Below are positions 1,846 to 52,446 of a stretch of DNA of 64,000 nt, one piece after another. The notes beneath the pieces were generated by a model. The model ran no database searches. It was not told the DNA's origin and saw only the letters and a program-made list of their open reading frames with translations. The translations under genes were made by a program, and so were the position numbers. The stretch is from the IMG/VR virus record IMGVR_UViG_2974587864_000001; one strand, 5' to 3'. The number at the start of each line of letters is the position of its first letter. Positions within the stretch are counted from its first letter, which is position 1. This DNA comes from a virus (taxonomy: Duplodnaviria; Heunggongvirae; Uroviricota; Caudoviricetes; Straboviridae).

Positions 1846-1921
1846 GCAGGTGTAGTTCAATTGGTAGAATATCTGGTTTCCATCCAGATTGTTGAGGGTT
1901 CGAGTCCCTTCACCTGCTCCA
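1846..1921 (+). tRNA. tRNA-Gly (anticodon UCC)
   Basis: cloverleaf readable: acceptor GCAGGTG/CACCTGC, D-arm GTTCAATTGGTAGAAT, anticodon loop TTTCCAT (TCC), T-arm GGGTTCGAGTCCC, discriminator T then CCA encoded. Confidence 0.85.
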
Positions 1922-4046: not shown

Positions 4047-4053
4047 AAATCAA

Positions 4054-4082
4054 GCCGTTGCCGAAAGGTAGCGGCTTTTTTC
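4054..4082 (+). terminator. rho-independent terminator (imperfect hairpin + T-run)
   Basis: GCCGTTGCC-GAAAG-GTAGCGGC followed by TTTTTT. Confidence 0.5.
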
Positions 4083-4117
4083 GTTTTTATGCAAAATAAT
4101 GCTTGCACTGAATCGTG

Positions 4118-4168
4118 AGTGTGGTAAAGTACACACATCGAAACGAAACAGAGAAAAGGAACGAGAAA
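4118..4168 (+). promoter_or_regulatory. promoter/leader cassette: extended -10-like TGGTAAAGT followed by conserved leader ACACACATCGAAACGAAACAGAG
   Basis: same 5' leader recurs at >=8 other gene starts in the window; TGCTT (MotA-box-like) at 4101-4105. Confidence 0.4.
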
Positions 4169-4369
4169 ATGATTAAATTAAACCCAATCGACGCAGCAAA
4201 ACATTTCGTAGTAGTTGATAATGGTGTTGTGGTTGCAGAAGTTAAGGAAATCGCTTTCTCTGACCCAGACGCGGAAATGAAAAGAATGGGCTACTCTTAC
4301 CGGATCGAGCACAAAAACGGTGAAGTAGAATACGCCGACGATATCTCTGACGTTCAGGCGAAATTCTAA
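4169..4369 (+). CDS. hypothetical protein (66 aa)
   Basis: ATG 4169 preceded by AAGGAACGAG RBS inside conserved leader; track ORF start 4115 lies inside leader and is rejected. Confidence 0.55.
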   Translation: MIKLNPIDAAKHFVVVDNGVVVAEVKEIAFSDPDAEMKRMGYSYRIEHKNGEVEYADDISDVQAKF

Positions 4370-4375
4370 AAAGTT

Positions 4376-4405
4376 GTTGACCTAATCTGGGGGCTGTGAG
4401 AATAT
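4376..4405 (+). promoter_or_regulatory. sigma70-type early promoter TTGACC-N17-GAATAT with IR GGGGCT/AGCCCC bracketing the -10
   Basis: same architecture (IR-gtga-[-10]-IR) as promoter at 138; followed by shortened leader CCATCGAAACGAAACTGAGG. Confidence 0.4.
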
Positions 4406-4437
4406 AGCCCCATCGAAACGAAACTGAGGATGACATT

Positions 4438-4728
4438 ATGAAAACTTACAACATGAAAGAACTGGTTTGCTTCAACACTCGTCGTGAAGCCCGTGCGTAT
4501 GTTCTGGCTGCTGGTAAAAATACCTCTGCTGTAATCGACCTGGGTACTGATAAAGATGTTGGCGCACGTTGGGCTGCTGTTGTGGTTATCGCTGCTCCTG
4601 TGACTCCTGTTAAAACTCTGGTTCTGGGTGCGCGTAAAGCCGAAACTCTGAAAACCAGCACTTGCAATAACAGAGGTGTTCATAATGTCACCGTCATCAA
4701 AAAACGTAGCTTTGGTTTGAGGGCTTAA
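4438..4728 (+). CDS. hypothetical protein (96 aa)
   Basis: ORF with GAGGATGACATT-ATG. Confidence 0.55.
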   Translation: MKTYNMKELVCFNTRREARAYVLAAGKNTSAVIDLGTDKDVGARWAAVVVIAAPVTPVKTLVLGARKAETLKTSTCNNRGVHNVTVIKKRSFGLRA

Positions 4729-5192: not shown

Positions 5193-5440
5193 TGCGAGAA
5201 GGTATTGAAGTAAGAACGTTCCAGTTCGAAATGCGTCGTATCCCAGAAGCATCAATGAATCTCATTCGAGAACACAACGTGAAAATCGTAGAAATTGATG
5301 CATACGCGGGTACTGATCTTTATAATGATGCGAAGATTGACAGCATTGATTTAGACCTTGAGGGTGATATCGGGGATCTGAATAAGCTGGCTATTGCATT
5401 GAATGCAGAAACCAACAAATACGGGTATACAATCAAATGA
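5189..5440 (+). CDS. hypothetical protein (83 aa)
   Basis: ORF, ATGA overlap. Confidence 0.5.
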   Translation: MMREGIEVRTFQFEMRRIPEASMNLIREHNVKIVEIDAYAGTDLYNDAKIDSIDLDLEGDIGDLNKLAIALNAETNKYGYTIK

Positions 5441-5667
5441 AATATATTCTCGAATATCATGAGCATCAAATTACCGAAGCAATGATCGATAAGATGCGGG
5501 TATATAACCAAAACATTACCAGCATCAAACCGCTATCAGTGTGTCGTGAATTTGGGGGATACTCCTTCGCGATGTACACAAATTCCGAAGACGACGCAAC
5601 CGCGTATCTGAAAAGTATCGGTGCAATATTCGACAAATTCGAAAAAGTATGGAAGGTAGGTTTCTAA
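5437..5667 (+). CDS. hypothetical protein (76 aa)
   Basis: ORF, ATGA overlap. Confidence 0.5.
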   Translation: MKYILEYHEHQITEAMIDKMRVYNQNITSIKPLSVCREFGGYSFAMYTNSEDDATAYLKSIGAIFDKFEKVWKVGF

Positions 5668-5828
5668 TGAAAAAGTATTTTATTGAAGCGGCAGATCGTA
5701 TCGTTCTTGCTCTGTTGAACTGGAACCGTCGCCAGGATGTCTCTATCATGGCATCAACCAACGGGACAACATATGACCGTTATGATCCGGCGCGTGGACT
5801 CCATAAACCTTACGAGGTGAAAGAGTGA
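5667..5828 (+). CDS. small hypothetical protein (53 aa)
   Basis: ORF below track threshold; ATG overlaps upstream stop (TAATG). Confidence 0.3.
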   Translation: MKKYFIEAADRIVLALLNWNRRQDVSIMASTNGTTYDRYDPARGLHKPYEVKE

Positions 5829-7710: not shown

Positions 7711-9211
7711 ACTCGCTTCGACTCTGAAAATCTCAGAGAAGGAAGCGATCCTGAAACGTAATGCAGGTAATGACCTGCTGAAAGAGATTTTCCGCATTAC
7801 GTACACGAAACAGATTATGTTTCACATTAAGAAGTTTCCGCAGGTGGACGGCAAGCCAGGCACAACCCCGCTATCGAATGCTATCGCGGATTTGATGTCT
7901 GATTTGGCAACGCGCAAATATACGGGTAATGCAGCCCGTGATCGTCTGCTGGATATCGTATCATCAGTGAATGAGAATGATCGCGAAGTTCTTCGCCGTA
8001 TCATTAACCGCGATCTGGAATGTGGTGCTGGTACAACGTTACCAAACCGCGTATGGAAGAAACTCATTCCAGAACAGCCCCAATGCCTCGCTACGCCGTT
8101 TAGTGAGAAAGCCTTAAAACGTATTCGATTCCCTGCTTACTCGCAGCTTAAAGCCGATGGTGCGCGTTGTATGTCCGATCTGTTAGAGAATCAGATCCGC
8201 AAAGCAACCCGCGCGGGAAATGAGTATGAAGGTTTGGTGAATCTGGACAAGGATCTGAAAAAGATTCGTGAATATCTGGGTTATGATGTTGTACTTGATG
8301 GAGAACTGATTTATGTCCCTGCTGAAAAAACTGCTGTCGTTCCTTCGAACAGCGTTCCATTTAGTCTTGCTGGGTTTATGGGCGATGACGACGATTCTGT
8401 TTCTGAACTTGTGGCAGATGTTAGGCGGGAAGCTACCGAGAACGAGACACAAGCGGAAGCGAAACGCGAAGAGGGCAACGGGATTGTAAACAAATCCCTG
8501 AAAGGCACTATCAGCGACGAAGAGCAGCGCAATATCGTTTATGTTGTCTGGGATATCGTACCGTATGAAGTATACTATGGCGATGCTCCGAGTGTTCAAC
8601 CATATTGCGATCGTTTCTCTATCCTGGAAGGTGCGCTGGCTGGCTCTGGTGTAACATCGGTTAAGCTGATCCCTTCTATCCTGGTGCAGAACTATGCGGA
8701 AGCGAAAAAGGATTACAACAATTACCGCAATGACGGTAAAGAGGGTTCAATCCTGAAAAACGTTGATTTCAAATGGAAGGATTCACGCGTTGCGGATCAG
8801 GTGAAGTTGAAGAACAAAACCCCGATCGAACTGCGAATCATCGACGTGTACGAACACACCAAAGAACCTCATAAGGTTGGCGGGTTCGTGGTTGAGGACT
8901 TATCAGGAGAAGCCAGAACAAACACAGGTTCCGGTCTGACTGATACGGACTACCGATACGATGAAGACGGTATTAACCGCGTGTACATCCCGTTAGAAGA
9001 ACGTGGTGAACTGGATCGCGAATACATCATGGCGAACAAAAATGACTATATCGGCGCTATCGTCGAAATGGAAGTTGACGGACTCCAGAAATCGAAAACG
9101 CGTAAGAAAGGCGAACCTGAGTTCAGTTTCTTCCTGCCAATCATCAAGAAGATTCGACGCGATAAGACCGAACCGGATGATATTCACGTTATCTTCGCTG
9201 ATCTGTTTTAA
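7688..9211 (+). CDS. 30: ATP-dependent DNA ligase (T4 gp30 homolog)
   Basis: N-terminus MILQILNELAS..EKEAILKRNAGNDLLKEIFRITY parallels T4 ligase MILKILNEIAS..KQAILEKNKDNELLKRVY; adenylation site QLKADGARC; LIPEQPQ. Confidence 0.9.
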   Translation: MILQILNELASTLKISEKEAILKRNAGNDLLKEIFRITYTKQIMFHIKKFPQVDGKPGTTPLSNAIADLMSDLATRKYTGNAARDRLLDIVSSVNENDREVLRRIINRDLECGAGTTLPNRVWKKLIPEQPQCLATPFSEKALKRIRFPAYSQLKADGARCMSDLLENQIRKATRAGNEYEGLVNLDKDLKKIREYLGYDVVLDGELIYVPAEKTAVVPSNSVPFSLAGFMGDDDDSVSELVADVRREATENETQAEAKREEGNGIVNKSLKGTISDEEQRNIVYVVWDIVPYEVYYGDAPSVQPYCDRFSILEGALAGSGVTSVKLIPSILVQNYAEAKKDYNNYRNDGKEGSILKNVDFKWKDSRVADQVKLKNKTPIELRIIDVYEHTKEPHKVGGFVVEDLSGEARTNTGSGLTDTDYRYDEDGINRVYIPLEERGELDREYIMANKNDYIGAIVEMEVDGLQKSKTRKKGEPEFSFFLPIIKKIRRDKTEPDDIHVIFADLF

Positions 9212-9232
9212 ATAGCACTTTTTGCTAAAGAA

Positions 9233-9303
9233 GCCCCTTGCATATGTGAGGGGCTTTTTGTATATTACACACATCGAAACGAAACAGACAAAAGGAACAT
9301 CCC
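9233..9303 (+). promoter_or_regulatory. stem-loop + extended -10 (TGTATATT) + conserved leader ACACACATCGAAACGAAACAGACAAAAGGAAC cassette (PeSL-like)
   Basis: hairpin GCCCCTTGCATATGTGAGGGGC + TTTTT (terminates ligase) immediately followed by promoter-like element and the repeated leader. Confidence 0.5.
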
Positions 9304-9576
9304 ATGCAAATCACTAAAGAACTCGAAGGCAAAGTAATCGTTCTGGTAAATGAAGACCGTTTGGCACAACTGGGTAACGGTGGTGAAAAACTGCCAGCGG
9401 ACGCACTCGAAAGCCTTTCTAAAATGCGTGTGATGTGTGTTACTGACGGTTGGGTTACTTGTCTGCCTCTGAACGACGAAGACAAAGCCGTATACGATGC
9501 ACAAGCGGATTCATGGGATATCGAAGTACCTCTGGTGAACATCGAAGTTGAAGAGTGCTACGAAATCGAAAAATAA
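9304..9576 (+). CDS. hypothetical protein (90 aa)
   Basis: ORF after conserved leader. Confidence 0.55.
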   Translation: MQITKELEGKVIVLVNEDRLAQLGNGGEKLPADALESLSKMRVMCVTDGWVTCLPLNDEDKAVYDAQADSWDIEVPLVNIEVEECYEIEK

Positions 9577-9644
9577 TGCTTGCTTCCTGGGTAGTGTAGT
9601 GATACATTACCCACATCGAAACAACACGGAAAGAGGAAAATATT
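9574..9644 (+). promoter_or_regulatory. possible middle-type promoter (TGCTT box) with degenerate conserved leader CCACATCGAAACAACACGGAAAGAGG
   Basis: AATGCTTGCTT at 9574-9584; leader variant before ATG 9645. Confidence 0.3.
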
Positions 9645-9887
9645 ATGTCAATGGCTCACTTAACTAAGAAAGCGGATTTTCTGGCTCTGATTGCTGGCAT
9701 GAACGCACCGCGTTTAACTCGTAACAACATTCAGGTGTTTGTGTATGACGAGAAGCCAAGCAATAACGAAGTTCAGTTCCCGACTCTGATCTATTGCGCT
9801 TCTAATTTCCGTGAAGAAAGCTACATCGCAGCACAGAACAAATTGTGGAAATTCCGCGATTGGATGAACGAGGCGAAAAATGGTTGA
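9645..9887 (+). CDS. hypothetical protein (80 aa)
   Basis: ORF. Confidence 0.5.
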   Translation: MSMAHLTKKADFLALIAGMNAPRLTRNNIQVFVYDEKPSNNEVQFPTLIYCASNFREESYIAAQNKLWKFRDWMNEAKNG

Positions 9888-10164
9888 TATGAGTAAAGAA
9901 GCCGTTGAAGCACGGGTTGCGGAAGCGCTGAAAGATATTGATTTCGGTCGCTTCCTTGATAATGCTCCAACGATACCGGACACAATCTGCCTTAATTGTG
10001 GGCGTTGTGTTATGGTTGGAAAATGCTGTGATAACCCGAATATTGTTATCATGGAAAGGAAAGAAGTTTCGGAAGAAGTCTGGAATCAGATTCAGGAAAT
10101 CATTAAGAATCCACCAGAACCGACGAAGCGTTTGCGTGAAATCATGAGCAGGAATAAATTATGA
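9880..10164 (+). CDS. small Cys-rich protein (94 aa; CLNCGRC...GKCC)
   Basis: ORF; probable zinc-binding cysteine cluster. Confidence 0.5.
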   Translation: MVDMSKEAVEARVAEALKDIDFGRFLDNAPTIPDTICLNCGRCVMVGKCCDNPNIVIMERKEVSEEVWNQIQEIIKNPPEPTKRLREIMSRNKL

Positions 10165-10535
10165 AATCAGAACCAAGTAAAACTATCCGCCTGATCCGTT
10201 GGGAAGGGCAAGAAATCCGTTATGAAGACGACGATCGCGAATTCGTTCATGAAATGCTTGCTCATAATCTGGGGTTCAAAAACGCCGCGCTGGTGATGAT
10301 GCAGCAAACCAGTGATGAAGACACCTGGCAATGCGTCATTCTCGATCTGGACAAAAACAAGGATTACACCGAAGATGAACTGTTCGCGCTCACAGAGAAC
10401 GCTACAGCGCGTCAGAAGTGCTTCATGATCGATATGCCTCGCGAGAACTACGAGAATATCAAGAAAGCCCGTAAACAGAACAAGAACAACGTGTTCGACC
10501 TGTTCATGGGCTATCATGAAGAAACTACGGCCTAA
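10161..10535 (+). CDS. hypothetical protein (124 aa)
   Basis: ORF, ATGA overlap. Confidence 0.5.
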   Translation: MKSEPSKTIRLIRWEGQEIRYEDDDREFVHEMLAHNLGFKNAALVMMQQTSDEDTWQCVILDLDKNKDYTEDELFALTENATARQKCFMIDMPRENYENIKKARKQNKNNVFDLFMGYHEETTA

Positions 10536-11635
10536 GCCTCACTGGTTTTACTGGTGTCGTTCGTAGCCGCTGCCACCTGTACACATTCCAATGTTTGCAG
10601 GTGGAAATCTTTTGATACATCGCGGATACATTCAACGATCAGATACTTCCCTGAATATTCATCCCCTAACACCTCAATCAATGCCCCCACTTTAACATCC
10701 ATTCGACCCTGATTGATATCAAACCGAATACGTTTTTCATAACTGGATAACGTCTGACACTTCACAGCCTGGAACGGTTGACCCTGTTTGTCTGGGTTCT
10801 GGAAGTTGTTCTCATATACCGCGTTCCGGTTCATGGTGATCCATGCGTTTTCAATATCGGTACTCGCAAGGATATCACTGTACAGTTTTTTATCCGTCAT
10901 CGAGAAACTAAAGAAACTTGCATCCCCTAACAGGGTAGTGTTATCCTTATGGGTAATGTATTCTGCTTTAGTGAATACCAAAGCGTCACCTAAAAACGGG
11001 TTACTTACGTTGAACTTGTAAGCCTTTAACGGGGTTTGTGCGAGGATCTCCGTATTGCTTTTCATAAAGATACCGGAACCATCTTCCCACAGATAACAGA
11101 AGTCAGACGAATCTACGCTCTGCCCGTTGTCACGGATGTAATCAAACACGGTTTCATACGTCCCGCTCAGGCAAGCCGGAGGAATACGCACGTTTGATGC
11201 GTCGATAGGCGGCGTAATCAACTTCATATCGTTATACAGTGCCGTCATGCACTCTGTAATCGTCTGTACGGCGTTGTTACTGAACGAACGGGAAAACTTA
11301 CGACGAAACACCGTATGCACCGGAGAAAGGTTTAGGCGCAGTATAGAGCGGTTCATATCATCGGTTTCGACGTTTGAATACAGAACACCGTAGTAATGCT
11401 GTTCTAACGTTTCGTTATACTGGAAGGATACCTGAATAATCGGTTTCTCTGTCAACTGATAGATTAACTGGTTATCATAGATCTGCATCAATGTTTCAGA
11501 AGTACCGTTAATGATGGTTTTCTCACTCATTGAGACAAGGGCAGGTAACAATTCAAGATAGACGTTATCAGCGAACTTTTCATATGTTGGATATAATTTA
11601 ACCGACACGACGCGGTTTATAACTTTACTGGACAT
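10532..11635 (-). CDS. 27: baseplate hub subunit (T4 gp27 homolog)
   Basis: N-terminal VKLYPTYEKF...TLMQIYDN resembles T4 gp27 VKLFDSYDAW...GMLQFYDS; C-terminal ...IVECIRDVS vs T4 VDEVIHELS; size 367 vs 391 aa. Confidence 0.65.
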   Translation of the reverse strand: MSSKVINRVVSVKLYPTYEKFADNVYLELLPALVSMSEKTIINGTSETLMQIYDNQLIYQLTEKPIIQVSFQYNETLEQHYYGVLYSNVETDDMNRSILRLNLSPVHTVFRRKFSRSFSNNAVQTITECMTALYNDMKLITPPIDASNVRIPPACLSGTYETVFDYIRDNGQSVDSSDFCYLWEDGSGIFMKSNTEILAQTPLKAYKFNVSNPFLGDALVFTKAEYITHKDNTTLLGDASFFSFSMTDKKLYSDILASTDIENAWITMNRNAVYENNFQNPDKQGQPFQAVKCQTLSSYEKRIRFDINQGRMDVKVGALIEVLGDEYSGKYLIVECIRDVSKDFHLQTLECVQVAAATNDTSKTSEA

Positions 11636-11657
11636 TAGACATCCTCCCTTTATATTC

Positions 11658-11677
11658 TATTTACTAAATAGTAAATA
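11658..11677. promoter_or_regulatory. 20-bp near-perfect palindrome TATTTACTAAATAGTAAATA in divergent gp27/gp28 intergenic region; candidate bidirectional late-promoter (TAAATA) element
   Basis: palindrome read directly; TAAATA-type motifs also precede gp53/gp4, gene 3, gp2 and 55554 gene. Confidence 0.35.
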
Positions 11678-11697
11678 TCGGGATACTTGAGGCGATC

Positions 11698-12276
11698 ATG
11701 AAAGAGAAGAAAAACACACTTGATAAATTTATGGTTACGCGTTTAAACATCAAGAACAGCAAAAATAAAGTAGTCACGTTGCCTACTGGTGAACAGGTTA
11801 CGATCCCCCGTCTGGGCTATCGTCATTTCACCCAGATTAAAGCAATGAAAGACCCAATGCAGTTGCTTGAGTATATCATCAAAGAGATTCAACCGCGCGA
11901 ATTAACCGCAGCAGAAACCGAATTCCTTTTGATTCACCTGCATTATCATAATGACGATAAAGCAATGGCTGTATTGAAAGAGATCGGTATTAATCTGGAT
12001 GATATGAAAATCAGCGAAGCTAAGTATGAACATACTTTTGATAACCTTCGATTGGTCTTCAACAAACCGACCCTAATGCTGGATGATCTGGCATTACTGC
12101 TTAAAGAAGCGTATGACAACGGGAAGCCGATCGAACTGACGGACGAAAACCGTATTCAATTAATTAACTGCCTGTATCGTTATGAATATGACGATGTAAA
12201 ACGTGGCGTACTCCAGGAAGTCTATATTGTGCATGAGGGGAAAACCATTAAAGGGCTTAACATCATCGGTGAATGA
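11698..12276 (+). CDS. putative baseplate hub distal subunit (gp28-like, by position/size)
   Basis: first gene of gp28-29-48-54 block; 192 aa vs 177 aa in T4; no motif-level confirmation. Confidence 0.4.
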   Translation: MKEKKNTLDKFMVTRLNIKNSKNKVVTLPTGEQVTIPRLGYRHFTQIKAMKDPMQLLEYIIKEIQPRELTAAETEFLLIHLHYHNDDKAMAVLKEIGINLDDMKISEAKYEHTFDNLRLVFNKPTLMLDDLALLLKEAYDNGKPIELTDENRIQLINCLYRYEYDDVKRGVLQEVYIVHEGKTIKGLNIIGE

Positions 12277-18470: not shown

Positions 18471-18682
18471 GCTAATTCCTTCTCGATTGCTTCGATGATG
18501 TGGAGAACGTAACCGTTCAGTTCTTTTGCTTTATCAGCGGCTTCAACCATACCGTAACGAGGAACTTCTAAAACGTTCGCACCTTCGAGCAGGTTGCTTT
18601 CGATGTCTACGATTACGTAGCTCTCACCGATTACTGCGCCTTTTCTCCAGTCTTTTACGAACTTCACCATTTTAGCTTTCAT
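18467..18682 (-). CDS. hypothetical protein (71 aa)
   Basis: ATG 18682 preceded by AAGGAACGAG RBS within conserved leader; track start 18739 lies inside the leader/promoter. Confidence 0.55.
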   Translation of the reverse strand: MKAKMVKFVKDWRKGAVIGESYVIVDIESNLLEGANVLEVPRYGMVEAADKAKELNGYVLHIIEAIEKELA

Positions 18683-18760
18683 GTTCTCGTTCCTTTTGGC
18701 TGTTCCGTTTCGATATGTGTAATATAACAAAGCCCTCACGCGAACGCAAGGGCTTTTTTG
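18683..18760 (-). promoter_or_regulatory. stem-loop + TGTTATATT extended -10 + conserved leader cassette (PeSL-like)
   Basis: minus-strand reading: GCCCTTGCGTTCGCGTGAGGGC-TTTGTTATATTACACATATCGAAACGGAACAG..AAGGAACGAGAAC-ATG. Confidence 0.5.
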
Positions 18761-18762
18761 GA

Positions 18763-19416
18763 TTAACTGAATTTATTATAGAGAGTGAAATTAATCCCTA
18801 TAGAATTCAATGCTTTACATGTTGCATCAAGATCGGTTGGTTCGATTTCGATGATGTATTTCAACGCTGTGTTTACTGGAATGGTTTCTGGTTCTTCGAA
18901 AGATGCCAGGGTTGGCGCTTTCACCGTTTCTGGTTCAGCAAGCGCGGTTTTCTTTACGTCAAACGCTTCTTTGAACTTGTTGATCCTTTTTAGCAGATCA
19001 TCAATCAATTCGATGTTGGCTCCGTCGAATTGTTTGGTTTGTTCCAGCATACTCGTAATCTTTCCGTATGTAGTGCGTCTGGTTTGTTCCGTGTAATTCC
19101 CTACTTCATAACGGTCGATCCGGTCGATGATTGCCCGAACATGTCCAAGATTCGCGCGATCGAAATACGCAATCAACTTAGATTTTCTGAACACGAACAT
19201 ATATGGAGCATTACCGACAATGTAATGAGTTGCCGTTAGACCAAAACTAGGATCGATCAGAATTTTAACCGTGTTGAAATACGGGATTAAATTTATTTCA
19301 CGTTCAGGCAAACGGAAAACTTCATCTTTAAAGTTCTTCCCAATCCGGTCGATCTCTTCCAGAGTTTTACCCATCATCGACGAAATTATTTCAATTTTTT
19401 TAGATACATAAGCCAT
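18763..19416 (-). CDS. hypothetical protein (217 aa)
   Basis: ORF. Confidence 0.5.
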   Translation of the reverse strand: MAYVSKKIEIISSMMGKTLEEIDRIGKNFKDEVFRLPEREINLIPYFNTVKILIDPSFGLTATHYIVGNAPYMFVFRKSKLIAYFDRANLGHVRAIIDRIDRYEVGNYTEQTRRTTYGKITSMLEQTKQFDGANIELIDDLLKRINKFKEAFDVKKTALAEPETVKAPTLASFEEPETIPVNTALKYIIEIEPTDLDATCKALNSIGINFTLYNKFS

Positions 19417-25063: not shown

Positions 25064-25342
25064 TCAGTGTCCGAACACACCACGGATAGACTCTGCGAAA
25101 GCGTACAGTTCAGGGTTTTTCGCTTTCACTGTTTCGATTTGTTCCAGGATGTAATCTGGTTTGTATTTCGCACCGAACCAGCAGTAAGAGAAAGAACGAT
25201 CCCACATGAACACGTTGTAGTATTCACCGTTACGCACTTCAACCATCACGTAACCTGGATTAGAACCCAGCGGGTAATCTTTCAGGAGATTGAATTTCGC
25301 ACCAGCGCCAGTACATCCGTTAAACAGGTCATTAAAAGTCAT
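25064..25342 (-). CDS. hypothetical protein (92 aa)
   Basis: ORF. Confidence 0.5.
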   Translation of the reverse strand: MTFNDLFNGCTGAGAKFNLLKDYPLGSNPGYVMVEVRNGEYYNVFMWDRSFSYCWFGAKYKPDYILEQIETVKAKNPELYAFAESIRGVFGH

Positions 25343-25384
25343 TGGTATGTTCCTTTTCAGTTTCGTTTCAACAAGGCCAATATA

Positions 25385-25600
25385 TTACACTTCGTTAAAC
25401 CATGCAAGATATTTCTTCTCTTGTCTGTTCAAAACGTCATAACAAGAGGCGACACAAACGGTTTCCCACACAACTTCATCGTAAGCATTCACGAAGCGAA
25501 TGATCAGAGTTTTGCCATTAGTCATCAAAGCCGGAGTGAACCCAAGTTCTTTAACCGCTTTTACTTTCTTCTGGAATAACGCTTTAGTCATGTTAGCCAT
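25385..25600 (-). CDS. hypothetical protein (71 aa)
   Basis: ATG 25600 with AAAGGAGG RBS and partial conserved leader (CGAAACAAAGGAGG). Confidence 0.5.
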   Translation of the reverse strand: MANMTKALFQKKVKAVKELGFTPALMTNGKTLIIRFVNAYDEVVWETVCVASCYDVLNRQEKKYLAWFNEV

Positions 25601-25646
25601 TTTGTGCCTCCTTTGTTTCGGTAAAGCTAAGGTATCACTATCCTGG

Positions 25647-26183
25647 TCAGTATGCAATGTTTAATTTTGCAAATTTACCAAAATGTTTTATCGCTTCCCG
25701 ATCGTATGCTTTTGCAGCCTCGTATTCATCACGATAGGAACCGATATGTTTAACCTTACCATCAATCTTTATCTGTGCAATGTAACGTATTCCTGTTGGT
25801 TGATTGCGCACACATACACCCTTGAATCGACTGGTTGCTACTTTTCGTTTAGTTCGGTTCTGGCAGTTTCGAGATTGATCCGCTTCACGCAAGTTGTCAA
25901 TCCCGTCGCCAGCCTCAACACCATTTTTGTGATCAATCACATCAGGCAGTTTTCCGGTTGCAACGTAGTATATGATTCGATGACGTAGATAGTTTTTCCC
26001 ATCAACTTTAAGACGGGTATACCCTTCTTTCATCTTCGTGCCTGGTTCAGTACCGACGAGTGTAGATTTCTTGTGTTTAACCCAAACAATCTTACCCGTC
26101 TGTACGTTTACCGCAACGTTTTCAAGAAGGGCATCAATGCCCCTCTTTTCCTCTTCAATTGTTCTTAACCCGTTATGTGACAT
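25647..26183 (-). CDS. HNH homing-type endonuclease with AP2-like DNA-binding domain
   Basis: HNH_3-like DVIDHKNGV...DNLREADQSRNCQN motif; C-terminal FKGVC...IRYIAQIKIDGKVKHIGSYRDEYEAAKAYDREAIKHFG AP2 signature. Confidence 0.75.
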   Translation of the reverse strand: MSHNGLRTIEEEKRGIDALLENVAVNVQTGKIVWVKHKKSTLVGTEPGTKMKEGYTRLKVDGKNYLRHRIIYYVATGKLPDVIDHKNGVEAGDGIDNLREADQSRNCQNRTKRKVATSRFKGVCVRNQPTGIRYIAQIKIDGKVKHIGSYRDEYEAAKAYDREAIKHFGKFAKLNIAY

Positions 26184-30039: not shown

Positions 30040-30221
30040 TCAGCCAGCCTTATATTGTTTGGATCAGGAACGAATGTATCTTTCTGGGTAATCATGAACA
30101 CCAGGAAAGCAGCGACTTCGGGATCTTCAATCACATTGAACTTGCGATTGCCTTTCCAACGTACCGCGATTTTACCATCATCGAGTTTTCTGATTTCGGC
30201 TACTTCTGATTTCTTGCTCAT
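30036..30221 (-). CDS. hypothetical protein (61 aa)
   Basis: ATG 30221 with GAAGGAGG RBS inside conserved leader. Confidence 0.5.
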   Translation of the reverse strand: MSKKSEVAEIRKLDDGKIAVRWKGNRKFNVIEDPEVAAFLVFMITQKDTFVPDPNNIRLAD

Positions 30222-30290
30222 AATTACCTCCTTCGTTTCGATGCCCCTAATATAACAAAAGCCCTCACGCGAACGCAAGGGCTTTTTTCA
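30222..30290 (-). promoter_or_regulatory. stem-loop + TGTTATATT + leader cassette (PeSL-like)
   Basis: GCCCTTGCGTTCGCGTGAGGGC-TTTTGTTATATTAGGGGCATCGAAACGAAGGAGG on minus strand; hairpin identical to that at 18733. Confidence 0.5.
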
Positions 30291-41964: not shown

Positions 41965-42228
41965 TTAAATGTCTTTGCACTGGCAAACACCATATTTGGT
42001 GAAAGGCTTGTCACCGCTCAGGTAAGACCAGAAATCACAAGCCTGTTCAGCGGTTTCGAAGATTGCAGCATCATAGAAGCCGTGTTCTTCGTTACCGTCT
42101 TTATTGAGGAACACAGGAAGCCAGCTTTGCGGTTTGAAGCAGTCAGTAACAACTACCCAACCTTCTTTCGCTTTCATTGCTTCTTTGTTCGCTTCAACCA
42201 TTTCCAGCATTTCGTTCAGTAAGTTCAT
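41965..42228 (-). CDS. hypothetical protein (87 aa)
   Basis: ORF downstream of consensus early promoter. Confidence 0.55.
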   Translation of the reverse strand: MNLLNEMLEMVEANKEAMKAKEGWVVVTDCFKPQSWLPVFLNKDGNEEHGFYDAAIFETAEQACDFWSYLSGDKPFTKYGVCQCKDI

Positions 42229-42261
42229 TTTAATCCCCTTGTTTATCTGTTTCGTTGTCTA

Positions 42262-42295
42262 CGAGAGAGATATTATCACAACGGGGATTAGTGTC
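42262..42295 (-). promoter_or_regulatory. sigma70-type early promoter TTGACA-N16-TAATAT (TG-extended) on minus strand
   Basis: minus-strand reading TTGACACTAATCCCCGTTGTGATAATAT; followed by partial leader GACAACGAAACAGATAAACAAGGGGATTAAA-ATG. Confidence 0.45.
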
Positions 42296-42300
42296 AACAG

Positions 42301-45990: not shown

Positions 45991-46239
45991 TTTGATACGT
46001 ACCGCGTTAAAAGCCTGGTTGCGAAGTTCATAAGCCTGTTCAAGCTGTTCTGTAGTGAACAGAGGACTATCGGTATTAGTGGTGAAACTGCAAATGGTTT
46101 TGTTGTCGGCGTTTACTTCTTCAACAACGATTTCATAACCCCAGATCCCGCTGTACTCACATTTCACGTTACGGTACTTGATGTAAACCGCAGCAACATC
46201 TTCTTTTTTGTAGTTCTTGCTTTTGTATATGATTTCCAT
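45988..46239 (-). CDS. hypothetical protein (83 aa)
   Basis: ATG 46239 with GAAGGAGG RBS after conserved leader variant. Confidence 0.55.
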   Translation of the reverse strand: MEIIYKSKNYKKEDVAAVYIKYRNVKCEYSGIWGYEIVVEEVNADNKTICSFTTNTDSPLFTTEQLEQAYELRNQAFNAVRIK

Positions 46240-46290
46240 GATTTCCTCCTTCGTTTCGATGTGTGTACAATAACAGATCAGGGTTATCGA
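46240..46290 (-). promoter_or_regulatory. leader/promoter variant (TGTTATTGT-ACACACATCGAAACGAAGGAGG) without upstream stem-loop
   Basis: minus-strand reading CTGTTATTGTACACACATCGAAACGAAGGAGGAAATC-ATG. Confidence 0.4.
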
Positions 46291-46310
46291 GTTTTAGCAA
46301 TTCGTGCTAA

Positions 46311-46589
46311 TTATGCCATTTTCTTAGCGATTTTCCAGGCAGCTTTGAACGCCGGAACATCTTCAATCTCAACCCAGAAACCAGAACCGAAACCATCATT
46401 GTAGCAAGGGCAACCGTCGCAGTAGTTTTCCCAGGTCATCACTTTACCACCAACAGAAGCACCAGTTTCCATCGCACGTAATGCATCTTCAACCTTTTCC
46501 AGTTTTTCTGCATTGTCGTCATAAATGATGAAGTACCATTTTCCGTTATATTCGTTACCCAGTTTGATTGCTTCGCGAACAAGTTTCAT
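46311..46589 (-). CDS. hypothetical protein (92 aa)
   Basis: ATG 46589 (MKLVREAIK) after conserved leader; track start 46637 lies in leader. Confidence 0.55.
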   Translation of the reverse strand: MKLVREAIKLGNEYNGKWYFIIYDDNAEKLEKVEDALRAMETGASVGGKVMTWENYCDGCPCYNDGFGSGFWVEIEDVPAFKAAWKIAKKMA

Positions 46590-46668
46590 GATGATTTCCT
46601 TTTTGTCTGTTTCGTTTCGATGTGTGTAATATAACAAAAGCCCCTGGCGGTTGCAAGGGGCTTTTTAA
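46590..46668 (-). promoter_or_regulatory. stem-loop + TGTTATATT + leader cassette (PeSL-like)
   Basis: GCCCCTTGCAACCGCCAGGGGC-TTTTGTTATATTACACACATCGAAACGAAACAGACAAAAAGGAAATCATC-ATG on minus strand. Confidence 0.5.
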
Positions 46669-46678
46669 ACAAAAAGTG

Positions 46679-46927
46679 CTATTTTGTTTCTTCGAGGATT
46701 CGAAGGATTTCGGCGCGGGTGATCGGATGTTTTGCCAGCTCACGGATCGCATGATCAACATGTATCTTACACATCAAAAACTTCTCCCCGCACTTGTCGC
46801 ATGTTGCATACATATCGCCATGTATACGCCCGATCCCATCGGTTACGGAATGATGCATCCAGGCGTAAGGAGTTCCCCGCATCCATCCGGTAGCAACATG
46901 TTTACATTCTCGTTTTCGTCCGAACAT
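46679..46927 (-). CDS. small Cys/His-rich protein (82 aa; CDKCGEKFLMCKIHVDH)
   Basis: ORF. Confidence 0.5.
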   Translation of the reverse strand: MFGRKRECKHVATGWMRGTPYAWMHHSVTDGIGRIHGDMYATCDKCGEKFLMCKIHVDHAIRELAKHPITRAEILRILEETK

Positions 46928-48141: not shown

Positions 48142-48314
48142 ATTTCGATGTTCGGCGCGTAAGTAACGTTTACCATCGGCATAGTGCGGTATTTGTAAGC
48201 GGCTTTGTACGCATCGAGTTCAGTCGGAACACAGAAAGAGAAACCGTTGTCATAACGTTCTGCGTTAGAAACTTCACAACCAACTACAGCGGCAATGTTT
48301 TTGTTCATGTTCAT
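48111..48314 (-). CDS. hypothetical protein (67 aa)
   Basis: ATG 48314 (MNMNKN) with AAAGGAAAAC RBS in conserved leader. Confidence 0.5.
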   Translation of the reverse strand: MNMNKNIAAVVGCEVSNAERYDNGFSFCVPTELDAYKAAYKYRTMPMVNVTYAPNIEMWLVQVYNKV

Positions 48315-48390
48315 GATGTTTTCCTTTCTCTGTTTCGTTTCGATGTGTGTAATATAACAAAGCCCCTGCATTGCTGCAAGGGCTTTTTCA
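48315..48390 (-). promoter_or_regulatory. stem-loop + TGTTATATT + leader cassette (PeSL-like)
   Basis: GCCCTTGCAGCAATGCAGGGGC-TTTGTTATATTACACACATCGAAACGAAACAGAGAAAGGAAAAC on minus strand. Confidence 0.5.
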
Positions 48391-48392
48391 CT

Positions 48393-52003: not shown

Positions 52004-52144
52004 TCACTTAAAAATTTTTTTGATGAAAGAGAGGAACAATCCACCACCGAACATGATCCAGTATCCAGCGCCGTCACCGTTAAACAGGACATACACAGCG
52101 ACACCATAGCAAAAGATTTCCGCGATATTCAGTAAGTTTCTCAT
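52004..52144 (-). CDS. small membrane protein (46 aa)
   Basis: GGAGGGAGTT-ATG RBS; MRNLLNIAEIFCYGVAVYVLFNGDGAGYWIMFGGGLFLSFIKKIFK. Confidence 0.35.
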   Translation of the reverse strand: MRNLLNIAEIFCYGVAVYVLFNGDGAGYWIMFGGGLFLSFIKKIFK

Positions 52145-52233
52145 AACTCCCTCCTTTGTCTACACCAGGTATTTTACCAGAAAGTAGATTACTGTCAACA
52201 ACAAAGTTTTATCAACCCACTTATCACCAGTCA

Positions 52234-52374
52234 TTAGTAATCCTCTACAGGTTGAGAAGATGCAACGCTCAGGATACGGAAAGAGCATTCATTCCATTTG
52301 CAGTAAGTTTTCGCACAGTGAACAGTGCCTTTCATTACAAACCCGTTTGAGAACACCAGCCAGTAAAGTTTCAT
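52234..52374 (-). CDS. small hypothetical protein (46 aa)
   Basis: ATG 52374 with AAAGGAGG RBS in conserved leader. Confidence 0.45.
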   Translation of the reverse strand: MKLYWLVFSNGFVMKGTVHCAKTYCKWNECSFRILSVASSQPVEDY

Positions 52375-52446
52375 GATTGCCTCCTTTGTTTCGACACCCC
52401 TAATATAACAAAAGCCCCTGCACGAATGCAAGGGCTTTTTTCAAAT
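52375..52446 (-). promoter_or_regulatory. stem-loop + TGTTATATT + leader cassette (PeSL-like)
   Basis: GCCCTTGCATTCGTGCAGGGGC-TTTTGTTATATTAGGGGTGTCGAAACAAAGGAGG on minus strand. Confidence 0.5.

Follow-up and report, generated by a model that had tools for sequence, protein, structure and literature searches.

The stretch analysed here, referred to as the window, comprises 64,000 nt of a Straboviridae genome (IMG/VR record IMGVR_UViG_2974587864_000001). Its positions 8000-12000 are 100% identical to Cronobacter phage vB_CsaM_leE (NC_048646.1; Straboviridae, Pseudotevenvirus, RB43 group), whose full genome of 181,570 bp we rebuilt from the record (window position = record position - 48,464). 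Directly downstream of the DNA ligase gene lies an intergenic element that recurs throughout this genome. We describe such elements as compact terminator-plus-early-promoter units, placed between small genes of a T4-like Cronobacter phage and belonging to the promoter early stem-loop (PeSL) type. At the ligase locus, the unit consists of the following features:

9210-9229 (+): AT-rich, partly palindromic element AAATAGCACTTTTTGCTAAA, directly 3' of the ligase stop codon TAA (9209-9211)
9228-9259 (+): GC-rich hairpin with A-run 5' and T-run 3', -21.2 kcal/mol; probable intrinsic terminator of the ligase transcript
9238-9243 (+): -35 hexamer TTGCAT within this hairpin (end of the 5' arm and loop), 17-nt spacing
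9261-9272 (+): -10 hexamer TATATT (9261-9266) and discriminator ACACAC (9267-9272)
9273-9303 (+): predicted transcript start and 31-nt 5' untranslated region (UTR), ATCGAAACGAAACAG followed by ACAAAAGGAAC (Shine-Dalgarno); ATG at 9304

A first-pass annotation of the window had listed repeated cassettes of this kind, and the coordinates it gave were all confirmed. The 15-mer ATCGAAACGRAACAG, with up to two mismatches, occurs eight times in the window against 0.42 expected, a number reached in 0 of 100 shuffles. On its own, TGTTATATT with one mismatch is not enriched in the window (16 observed, 22 expected); every one of its five exact window copies belongs to a cassette and has [A/G]TCGAAAC exactly 6 nt further on, as do five of the seven exact copies in the entire leE genome. 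Using the register as the defining feature ([A/G][T/C]CGAAAC exactly 6 nt 3' of the -10 hexamer), we found 11 copies in the window, with predicted +1 positions at 4137, 4412, 9273 and 9615 on the plus strand and at 18714, 25622, 30242, 46260, 46621, 48344 and 52395 on the minus strand. One GTTGAAAC variant comes in addition (+1 at 25372, minus strand). The genome-wide motif search and alignment yielded 16 in-register copies, plus variants, in the 181.6 kb of leE. All window copies sit in two arrays of small open reading frames (ORFs), at 1-10.5 kb (plus) and 17.7-55.3 kb (minus), and every one is oriented like the small early genes around it; none of the window cassettes is located in the baseplate blocks. 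Generic promoter and terminator scans served only for confirming individual sites, promoter-like sites not being enriched over shuffles.

Read from 5' to 3', a full cassette would comprise the upstream stop codon in an AT-rich stretch, a hairpin, a promoter, a discriminator and the transcript start; its borders are that AT-rich tract and the Shine-Dalgarno sequence and start codon of the next gene. Judged by its flanking A-run and T-run and by published related systems, the GC-rich hairpin would most likely terminate upstream transcription. The promoter appears to be of the host sigma-70 early type, with a (C)TTGCAx -35 inside the hairpin and a TG-extended -10 after the T-run. Aligning all 16 leE copies on the leader laid out -35, -10, discriminator and start: a -35 hexamer (TTGCAT/A/G, TTGCGT, TTGCTT or TTGACC/T) is present in 12 of them, 16-18 nt 5' of a TAnnnT -10, and many of the -10 hexamers are TG-extended. 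The earlier description of an extended -10 lacking a -35 is thus wrong; in hairpin copies the -35 lies within the hairpin, across the end of its 5' arm and the loop, at 17-18 nt from the -10. This layout agrees with the published RB43 early-promoter pattern (PMC1524935, PMC3486835). According to folding, 6 of the 11 window copies have an overlapping GC-rich hairpin (5' A-run, 3' T-run, -18 to -21 kcal/mol), and one hairpin, GCCCTTGCGTTCGCGTGAGGGC, is indeed used twice, in the 18714 and 30242 copies. The other five window copies have the same leader without an overlapping hairpin, a second correction to the first-pass annotation. The discriminator is 6 nt long, C-rich and variable among copies, with a conserved C at -1.

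The distance from the -10 to ATCG is exactly 6 nt in every in-register copy, whereas that from the core to the ATG is not fixed, the 5' UTR measuring 21-32 nt. In short-leader copies GGAGG takes over after about +9 to +11, and only about +1 to +8 remains constant. The fixed distance from the -10 and the conserved C at -1 point to the first core base (A) as the predicted +1, an assignment based on promoter geometry and on analogy with T7 A1. The invariant part of the leader is therefore best read as ATCGAAAC(GAAAC), an initial transcribed sequence, to which an A-rich spacer, the Shine-Dalgarno sequence and the ATG are joined at variable distance. The other cassettes and one related promoter of the window are as follows (all +1 positions are predicted):

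4052-4171 (+): cassette without overlapping hairpin; -35 TTGCAC 4103-4108; -10 TAAAGT 4125-4130; +1 4137; leader to 4168; candidate terminator hairpin 4052-4077, separate and about 45 nt upstream; ATG 4169 of gp086 (ORFan)
4366-4440 (+): cassette; -35 TTGACC 4377-4382; TG-extended -10 GAATAT 4400-4405; +1 4412; leader ATCGAAACGAAACTGAGGATGACATT; ATG 4438
9570-9647 (+): hairpin-less cassette; -35 TTGCTT 9580-9585; -10 TACATT 9603-9608; +1 9615 (ATCGAAACAACACGG); ATG 9645
18680-18760 (-): hairpin cassette; hairpin 18729-18756, -18.0 kcal/mol; -35 TTGCGT 18744-18749; -10 18721-18726; +1 18714; ATG 18680-18682
25340-25407 (-): variant cassette, absent from the earlier list; -35 TTGCAT 25402-25407; -10 TATATT 25379-25384; +1 25372 (GTTGAAACGAAACTGAAAAGGAAC); ATG 25340-25342
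25598-25665 (-): variant cassette; -35 TTGCAT 25652-25657; -10 TACCTT 25629-25634; +1 25622 (ACCGAAACAAAGGAGG); ATG 25598-25600
30219-30290 (-): short-leader hairpin cassette; hairpin 30257-30286, -19.7 kcal/mol; -35 TTGCGT, 18-nt spacing; -10 30249-30254; +1 30242 (ATCGAAACGAAGGAGG); ATG 30219-30221
42226-42297 (-): early promoter of a second start family; TTGACA 42292-42297; TAATAT 42270-42275; +1 about 42263 (CGTAGACAACGAAACAG); ATG 42226-42228
46237-46312 (-): Drexlerviridae-type cassette (compare locus L006); TTAGCACGAATTGCTAA 46294-46310, its TTGCTA 22 nt 5' of the -10; TG-extended -10 TATTGT 46267-46272, without -35; +1 46260; ATG 46237-46239
46587-46686 (-): full hairpin cassette; AATAGCACTTTTTGTTTAAA; hairpin 46636-46665, -18.9 kcal/mol; -35 TTGCAA 46651-46656; -10 46628-46633; +1 46621; ATG 46587-46589
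48312-48392 (-): hairpin cassette; hairpin 48359-48386, -21.4 kcal/mol; -35 TTGCAG 48374-48379; -10 48351-48356; +1 48344; ATG 48312-48314
52372-52446 (-): short-leader hairpin cassette; hairpin 52410-52439, -20.3 kcal/mol; -35 TTGCAT, 18-nt spacing; -10 52402-52407; +1 52395 (GTCGAAACAAAGGAGG); ATG 52372-52374

The copy at 4118-4168 had been described as lacking a hairpin, which holds for an overlapping one and not for the separate hairpin at 4052-4077. The site at 42229-42262, taken before as a leader variant, belongs to the second start family CGTAGACAA; the promoter at 42226-42297 is part of the same system, yet it is no in-register ATCGAAAC copy.

A sensitive BLAST search with the 107-nt cassette gave unexpected matches in 50-kb siphoviruses. 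These loci share one layout: hairpin or AT-rich element, TG-extended -10, 6 nt, ATCGAAACGAAAC, Shine-Dalgarno sequence and ATG. It was found in Webervirus and Nouzillyvirus (Drexlerviridae), and the Certrevirus copy is identical to leE over 27/27 nt, with unrelated downstream genes. The RB49-type Krischvirus phages, in which PeSLs were defined, have the same leader in register. The same start is also in register in the nt-1/KVP40-like vibriophage CZ01 and the siphovirus Vibrio phage 1.135.O, and RB43 and Slopekvirus KP15 carry it at orthologous and additional sites. In a register test on IMG/VR, TANNNT-N5-CATCGAAACGAAAC (spacing 6) was found in at least 120 stretches, compared with 4 for spacing 5 and 28 for spacing 7. 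Among the spacing-6 matches listed, 84 of 121 are lambdoid early promoters with diverse operator repeats, which run on into a stem-loop and a boxA-like TGCTTTTTAACAA (phi80, HK225 and HK639 types). In the phi80 record, nutL is annotated 21 nt 3' of the start; another 400 nt or so separate it from gene N. A phi80-like prophage segment with the core is present in 274 of 5,426 E. coli genomes. Host mimicry was considered and rejected within the limits of a 44-nt promoter-plus-leader query, which had no match in the same 5,426 genomes and rules out only near-exact matches of at least about 24 nt. Joint transfer of cassette and downstream gene between families was likewise discarded, as the proteins encoded downstream in leE, Certrevirus and Webervirus have no relationship to one another. 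A 16-mer scan of 185,579 bacterial genomes hit taxa at random, about as often as chance predicts for 596 Gb, the pattern being too short to be informative.

Two related IMG/VR contigs among the spacing-7 matches (L260-L287) combine TTGACA-N17-TAATCT, 7 nt and ATCGAAACGAAAC directly with a tRNA gene (GTGCAGTAGCTCAGACGGTAGAGCAGC...). Four GC-rich contigs (L136-L255) have TAGACT, 6 nt and ATCGAAACGAAACGACC(C/A)ATG, i.e. a 16-20-nt leader without visible Shine-Dalgarno sequence, a possible sign that phages of high-GC hosts have this start sequence too. The AT-rich element AAATAGCACTTTTTGCTAAA is present in 5 of the 16 leE cassettes and in Drexlerviridae promoters. It takes the partly palindromic form AAATAGCAC-N4/5-TTGCTAAA just 3' of the upstream stop codon (window 9210-9229, 46294-46310 and 46666-46686) and is common to T4-like and T1-like phages (L006, L007; IMG/VR matches L136-L255). 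In the Drexlerviridae promoters, its TTGCTA is fixed 22 nt from the -10, too distant for a -35.

The fixed -10 register, the downstream features other than ribosome-binding sites and the spacing preference in IMG/VR together argue for a role linked to transcription initiation. On balance we favour the proposal that the cassettes are PeSL-type terminator/early-promoter units whose core is a conserved initial transcribed sequence that probably helps RNA polymerase leave the promoter and would also provide a U-poor 5' UTR and recombination homology. The core is read as initial transcribed sequence because of its fixed register, because the feature downstream varies (ribosome-binding site, nutL or tRNA), and because its carriers share the host machinery, not regulators. 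A purine-rich, T-poor start without TG or TA steps would allow RNA polymerase to escape fast from a very tight promoter. In the leE copies, T makes up 8% of positions +1 to +20 (27.7% in the genome) and purines 73%; TG and TA steps are absent from +2 to +10 in all of them. Analysing thousands of start sequences, Heyduk and Heyduk (2018, PMC5961368) reported that Ts in the first ~7 positions and TG/TA steps slow promoter escape, and that GA or GG near +6 favours it; work cited there links purine content to productive yield and describes start sequences that alter in vivo promoter strength more than 10-fold. The leader RNA is predicted to be unstructured (minimum free energy -0.9), and such a short, U-poor 5' UTR would permit direct ribosome loading. 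RNase E prefers AU-rich sites, and by this preference a U-poor single-stranded leader should be a poor substrate for it. Finally, as the longest identical stretch among cassettes, the core would offer homology for recombination, by which the small ORFs between cassettes would be inserted, deleted or swapped. Anatomy, register, copy number, distribution across phages and the indels bordered by cassettes are direct observations, whereas the transcription start, termination, promoter escape, RNA stability and the way of recombination are deduced from sequence and from publications on related systems.

A broader proposal, for which we have less confidence and which we put forward tentatively, is that ATCGAAACGAAAC represents a pan-phage "start module" placed at +1 of the strongest host-polymerase promoters in virulent and temperate phages of Enterobacterales and Vibrio, in at least five lineages. 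The exact sequence, and not its composition alone, would be selected via RNA polymerase escape or 5'-end-dependent RNA decay, and would also form the left edge of exchangeable modules. No description of such a module appears in the literature searched, and full-text searches for the motif returned no phage paper, only unrelated primers.

PeSLs have been described at the sequence level as stop codon, AT-rich tract, -35, -10, stem-loop, Shine-Dalgarno sequence and ATG (PMC2839356, PMC4122927), a description that the leE cassettes match, as the first-pass annotation had proposed. Like the PeSLs of RB49/phi1, T4/PST and KVP40/nt-1 (Arbiol et al. 2010, PMC2839356; Comeau et al. 2014, PMC4122927), they are repeated intergenic stop-to-ATG units with a sigma-70-like promoter and, in six of the 11 window copies, a GC-rich stem-loop, lie among small early ORFs and are tied to ORF insertions and deletions (indels) between relatives. 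The hairpin copies fit one of the five described PeSL subclasses, in which the stem-loop overlaps the -35, and one RB49 stem-loop cut expression of a lacZ reporter to an extent comparable with the strong rrnB T1 terminator (PMC2839356). The RB49-type PeSL phages also carry the identical ATCGAAACGAAAC start. For the RB43 group, by contrast, only "PeSL-like sequences" near g43 had been reported. The leE -35 is TTGCAx instead of TTGACA. For PeSLs, recombination of neighbouring cassettes into mini-circles has been described (PMC2839356). The conserved start, its fixed register and its presence outside T4-like phages are not singled out in the text of the PeSL papers (PMC2839356, PMC4122927).

Early promoters of RB43 (Nolan et al. 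2006, PMC1524935; Perrody et al. 2012, PMC3486835) resemble those of leE in having G/C at -36, a TTGACA-like -35, a TAAAGT/TATAnT -10 and an A-rich upstream region; early expression was shown for one RB43 gene with such a promoter, rki (PMC1524935, PMC3486835). The published logos, as far as can be read from the text, cover the promoter only, whereas transcribed sequence and overlapping terminator are not addressed. T7 A1 and A3, with starts annotated in NC_001604, are strong host-polymerase early promoters with C-rich discriminators as well. Their starts ATCGAGAGG (A1) and ATGAAACGACAG (A3) resemble ATCGAAACGAAACAG with only partial identity; unlike in leE, discriminators are 7 nt, the untranslated leaders are long and there is no overlapping terminator. 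The phi80-type PL/nutL regions (M11919.1; HK225, HK639) have the identical ATCGAAACGAAAC 6 nt after the -10, just 5' of the annotated nutL. They differ from leE in the structured antitermination site with boxA-like TGCTTTTTAACAA that follows, in their repressor operators and in belonging to temperate phages. Lambdoid "morons" are comparable as single small genes with own promoter and terminator, present or absent between relatives, but in leE terminator and promoter are fused in one repeated junction element common to many genes. In RB69, the G+C content of novel ORFs was reported to be no different from the rest of the genome (PMC1524935).

Cassettes border ORF gains and losses between leE, RB43 and KP15, of which we found clear examples by comparing flanking gene content, as the first-pass annotation had suggested. 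The ORFan gp086 (4169-4369), flanked by the 4137 and 4412 cassettes, is confined to 18 close relatives and absent from RB43 and KP15, both of which have in its place a single promoter before the gp087 orthologue. Of the upstream cassette halves, RB43 retains the one at 4137 and KP15 the one at 4412. Both then have a different -10 and a CGTAGRCAAGA start, and all three phages rejoin at TGAGGATGACATTATG; at this orthologous promoter -10 and start have been swapped, and -35 and Shine-Dalgarno sequence kept. KP15_81 is an extra ORF between two cassettes 3' of the ligase gene; leE and RB43 each have a single cassette at that place. Further homology blocks stop at cassette edges, for example at 9208/9211, 30287/30293, 46672 and 48407. 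In RB49, sequenced mini-circle crossovers lie between the -10 and the Shine-Dalgarno sequence or ATG (PMC2839356), i.e. in the same interval as the leE conserved core. At the start of the RB43 gp087 orthologue (locus L134, ~5480-5545), we also noted a tandem duplication of AACTTAACTTTGAGGATGACATTATGAA that doubles ribosome-binding site and start codon.

Such indels, together with the patchwork replacement within one cassette, the RB49 junctions (PMC2839356) and the leE-Certrevirus identity over 27/27 nt ahead of unrelated genes, would also suit a leader without a function of its own. Its identity would then stem from cassette copying or conversion and from movement between co-infecting phages, as in a selfish or hitchhiking recombination module or after recent common descent. 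We consider this explanation unlikely: the core stays unchanged in copies and families whose neighbouring discriminators, hairpins, -10 hexamers and downstream spacers are different, it keeps an exact -10 register behind otherwise unrelated promoters, including lambdoid ones with different operators, and its composition fits the published determinants of fast escape (PMC5961368).

A second alternative gives the leader a translational role at the RNA level, as an enhancer, a ribosome standby site, a repressor operator or a site for a processing enzyme, as was in part suggested at first. The leader is A-rich and unstructured and ends in AAGGA or GGAGG near the ATG, every leE copy precedes a protein-coding start, and a RegA-like translational repressor is encoded by the phage according to its annotation. 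On the other hand, the core is anchored to the -10 and not to the Shine-Dalgarno sequence or ATG, the 5' UTR varying as given above, and the short-leader copies keep only ~+1 to +8, with the Shine-Dalgarno sequence from ~+9 or +11. The same core stands before a tRNA and before nutL, ~400 nt 5' of phi80 gene N, and is common to phage families without shared regulators. Pairing with 16S rRNA is not special (-9.3 kcal/mol against a shuffle mean of -12.0), and no Rfam 15 family matches the leader; the sole window match at gathering score is a tRNA, and the cassette region gave only weak matches caused by the terminator hairpin. The RNA-level account is thus improbable as a whole, and a translational operator, like a processing or standby site, is weakened to the point of being unlikely; some added RNA-level benefit may exist beside the initiation role.

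In the GenBank record of KP15 these elements carry two overlapping labels, "putative middle promoter; discovered using MEME" and "terminator (ARNold)", on which the corresponding paper (PMC5219037) offers no further discussion. We doubt very strongly that they are MotA-dependent middle promoters. Some copies do contain AATGCTTGC, resembling a MotA box, but most have no such box, and TGCTTGCA lies 17 nt from the -10 instead of the 11-13 nt of T4 middle promoters. The box-like sequence reads as a normal -35 TTGCAC with 16-nt spacing, and the same start is shared by phages outside the T4 type, namely T1-like and lambdoid ones. For RB43, of the same genus, the absence of a motA orthologue and of a middle-promoter consensus has been reported (PMC1524935, PMC3486835); for leE, no motA is named in the annotation, no search aimed at it having been made. 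The MotA assignment was rejected on account of the wrongly spaced AATGCTTGCA, which reads as a -35, and the reported lack of motA in RB43. Least credible of all is a DNA-binding site at +1 to +15 for a host or phage repressor or timing protein, with the tandem CGAAA-CGAAA as recognition element: the core does contain a short direct repeat and overlaps the transcription start, a classic operator position, but no candidate protein is known, and the site spans families with different regulators, so that only a host factor would fit, and nothing in the data suggests one.

Several points weigh against the interpretation as PeSL-type units with a conserved initial transcribed sequence. The general composition rules for escape leave the retention of an exact 13-mer unexplained, and common descent combined with horizontal cassette transfer could yield the same pattern. 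As 84 of the 121 listed IMG/VR matches come from one lambdoid lineage, independent observations are far fewer than the raw number of at least 120. The association of cassettes with breakpoints is a matter of examples, and the searched literature yielded no transcription-start, termination or expression data for leE or its genus. Moreover, when promoters were defined without the leader (-35, -10, downstream Shine-Dalgarno sequence and ATG), [A/G]TCGAAAC starts were found in 14 of ~43 leE candidates and a second recurrent start, CGTAGACAA, in four of the same set. About two thirds of the candidate early promoters thus lack the core start, which is not required for early transcription.

The second start family, (C/T)GTAGACAA..., follows TTGAC(A/G)-N16-TAATAT or TAAAAT promoters. 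It is found at 42226-42297 and 52142-52198 of the window (both minus), at 18809 (-) and 151817 (+) of the leE record, and in relatives at RB43 locus L134 (~5430-5470) and KP15 locus L135 (~5730-5770). At one orthologous promoter, this start alternates with the ATCGAAAC start between phages.

Cassette layout also bears on gene annotation. The annotated starts of gp171 (TTG 46635-46637) and gp176 (ATG 48369-48371), both on the minus strand, extend back through the promoter; true starts predicted by the layout are ATG 46587-46589 and ATG 48312-48314, respectively. An unannotated ORF of 71 amino acids (MANMTKALFQKK...; 25385-25600, minus) lies directly behind the cassette with +1 at 25622, in what is a gene-less gap of 304 nt in the record. 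Independently of the cassettes, we noted a tRNA-Gly (anticodon TCC) at 1846-1921 (+), in the 232-nt gap between gp080 and gp081, a region for which the leE feature table has no tRNA row; at the corresponding place tRNA Ile is annotated in RB43 and Met and Gln tRNAs in KP15.

With these results, the RB43 group joins the phages known to carry PeSL-type cassettes. The anatomy of the cassette is corrected in that a -35 exists, inside the terminator hairpin where one is present, and the "leader" begins at the predicted transcript start. This is of use for annotation: in leE, at least two gene starts run through a promoter and one small gene is absent from the record, and in KP15 the elements bear middle-promoter labels. 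Membership in a known class is of modest interest, and the start sequence shared across families is the part worth following up. If unrelated phages do share their first 13 transcribed bases in the same register, these would be a start sequence of natural origin, selected time and again for RNA polymerase of the E. coli type. This would bear on defining promoters so as to include the transcribed start, would supply builders of strong expression cassettes with a ready-made part, and could account for where mosaic boundaries fall in phage genomes.

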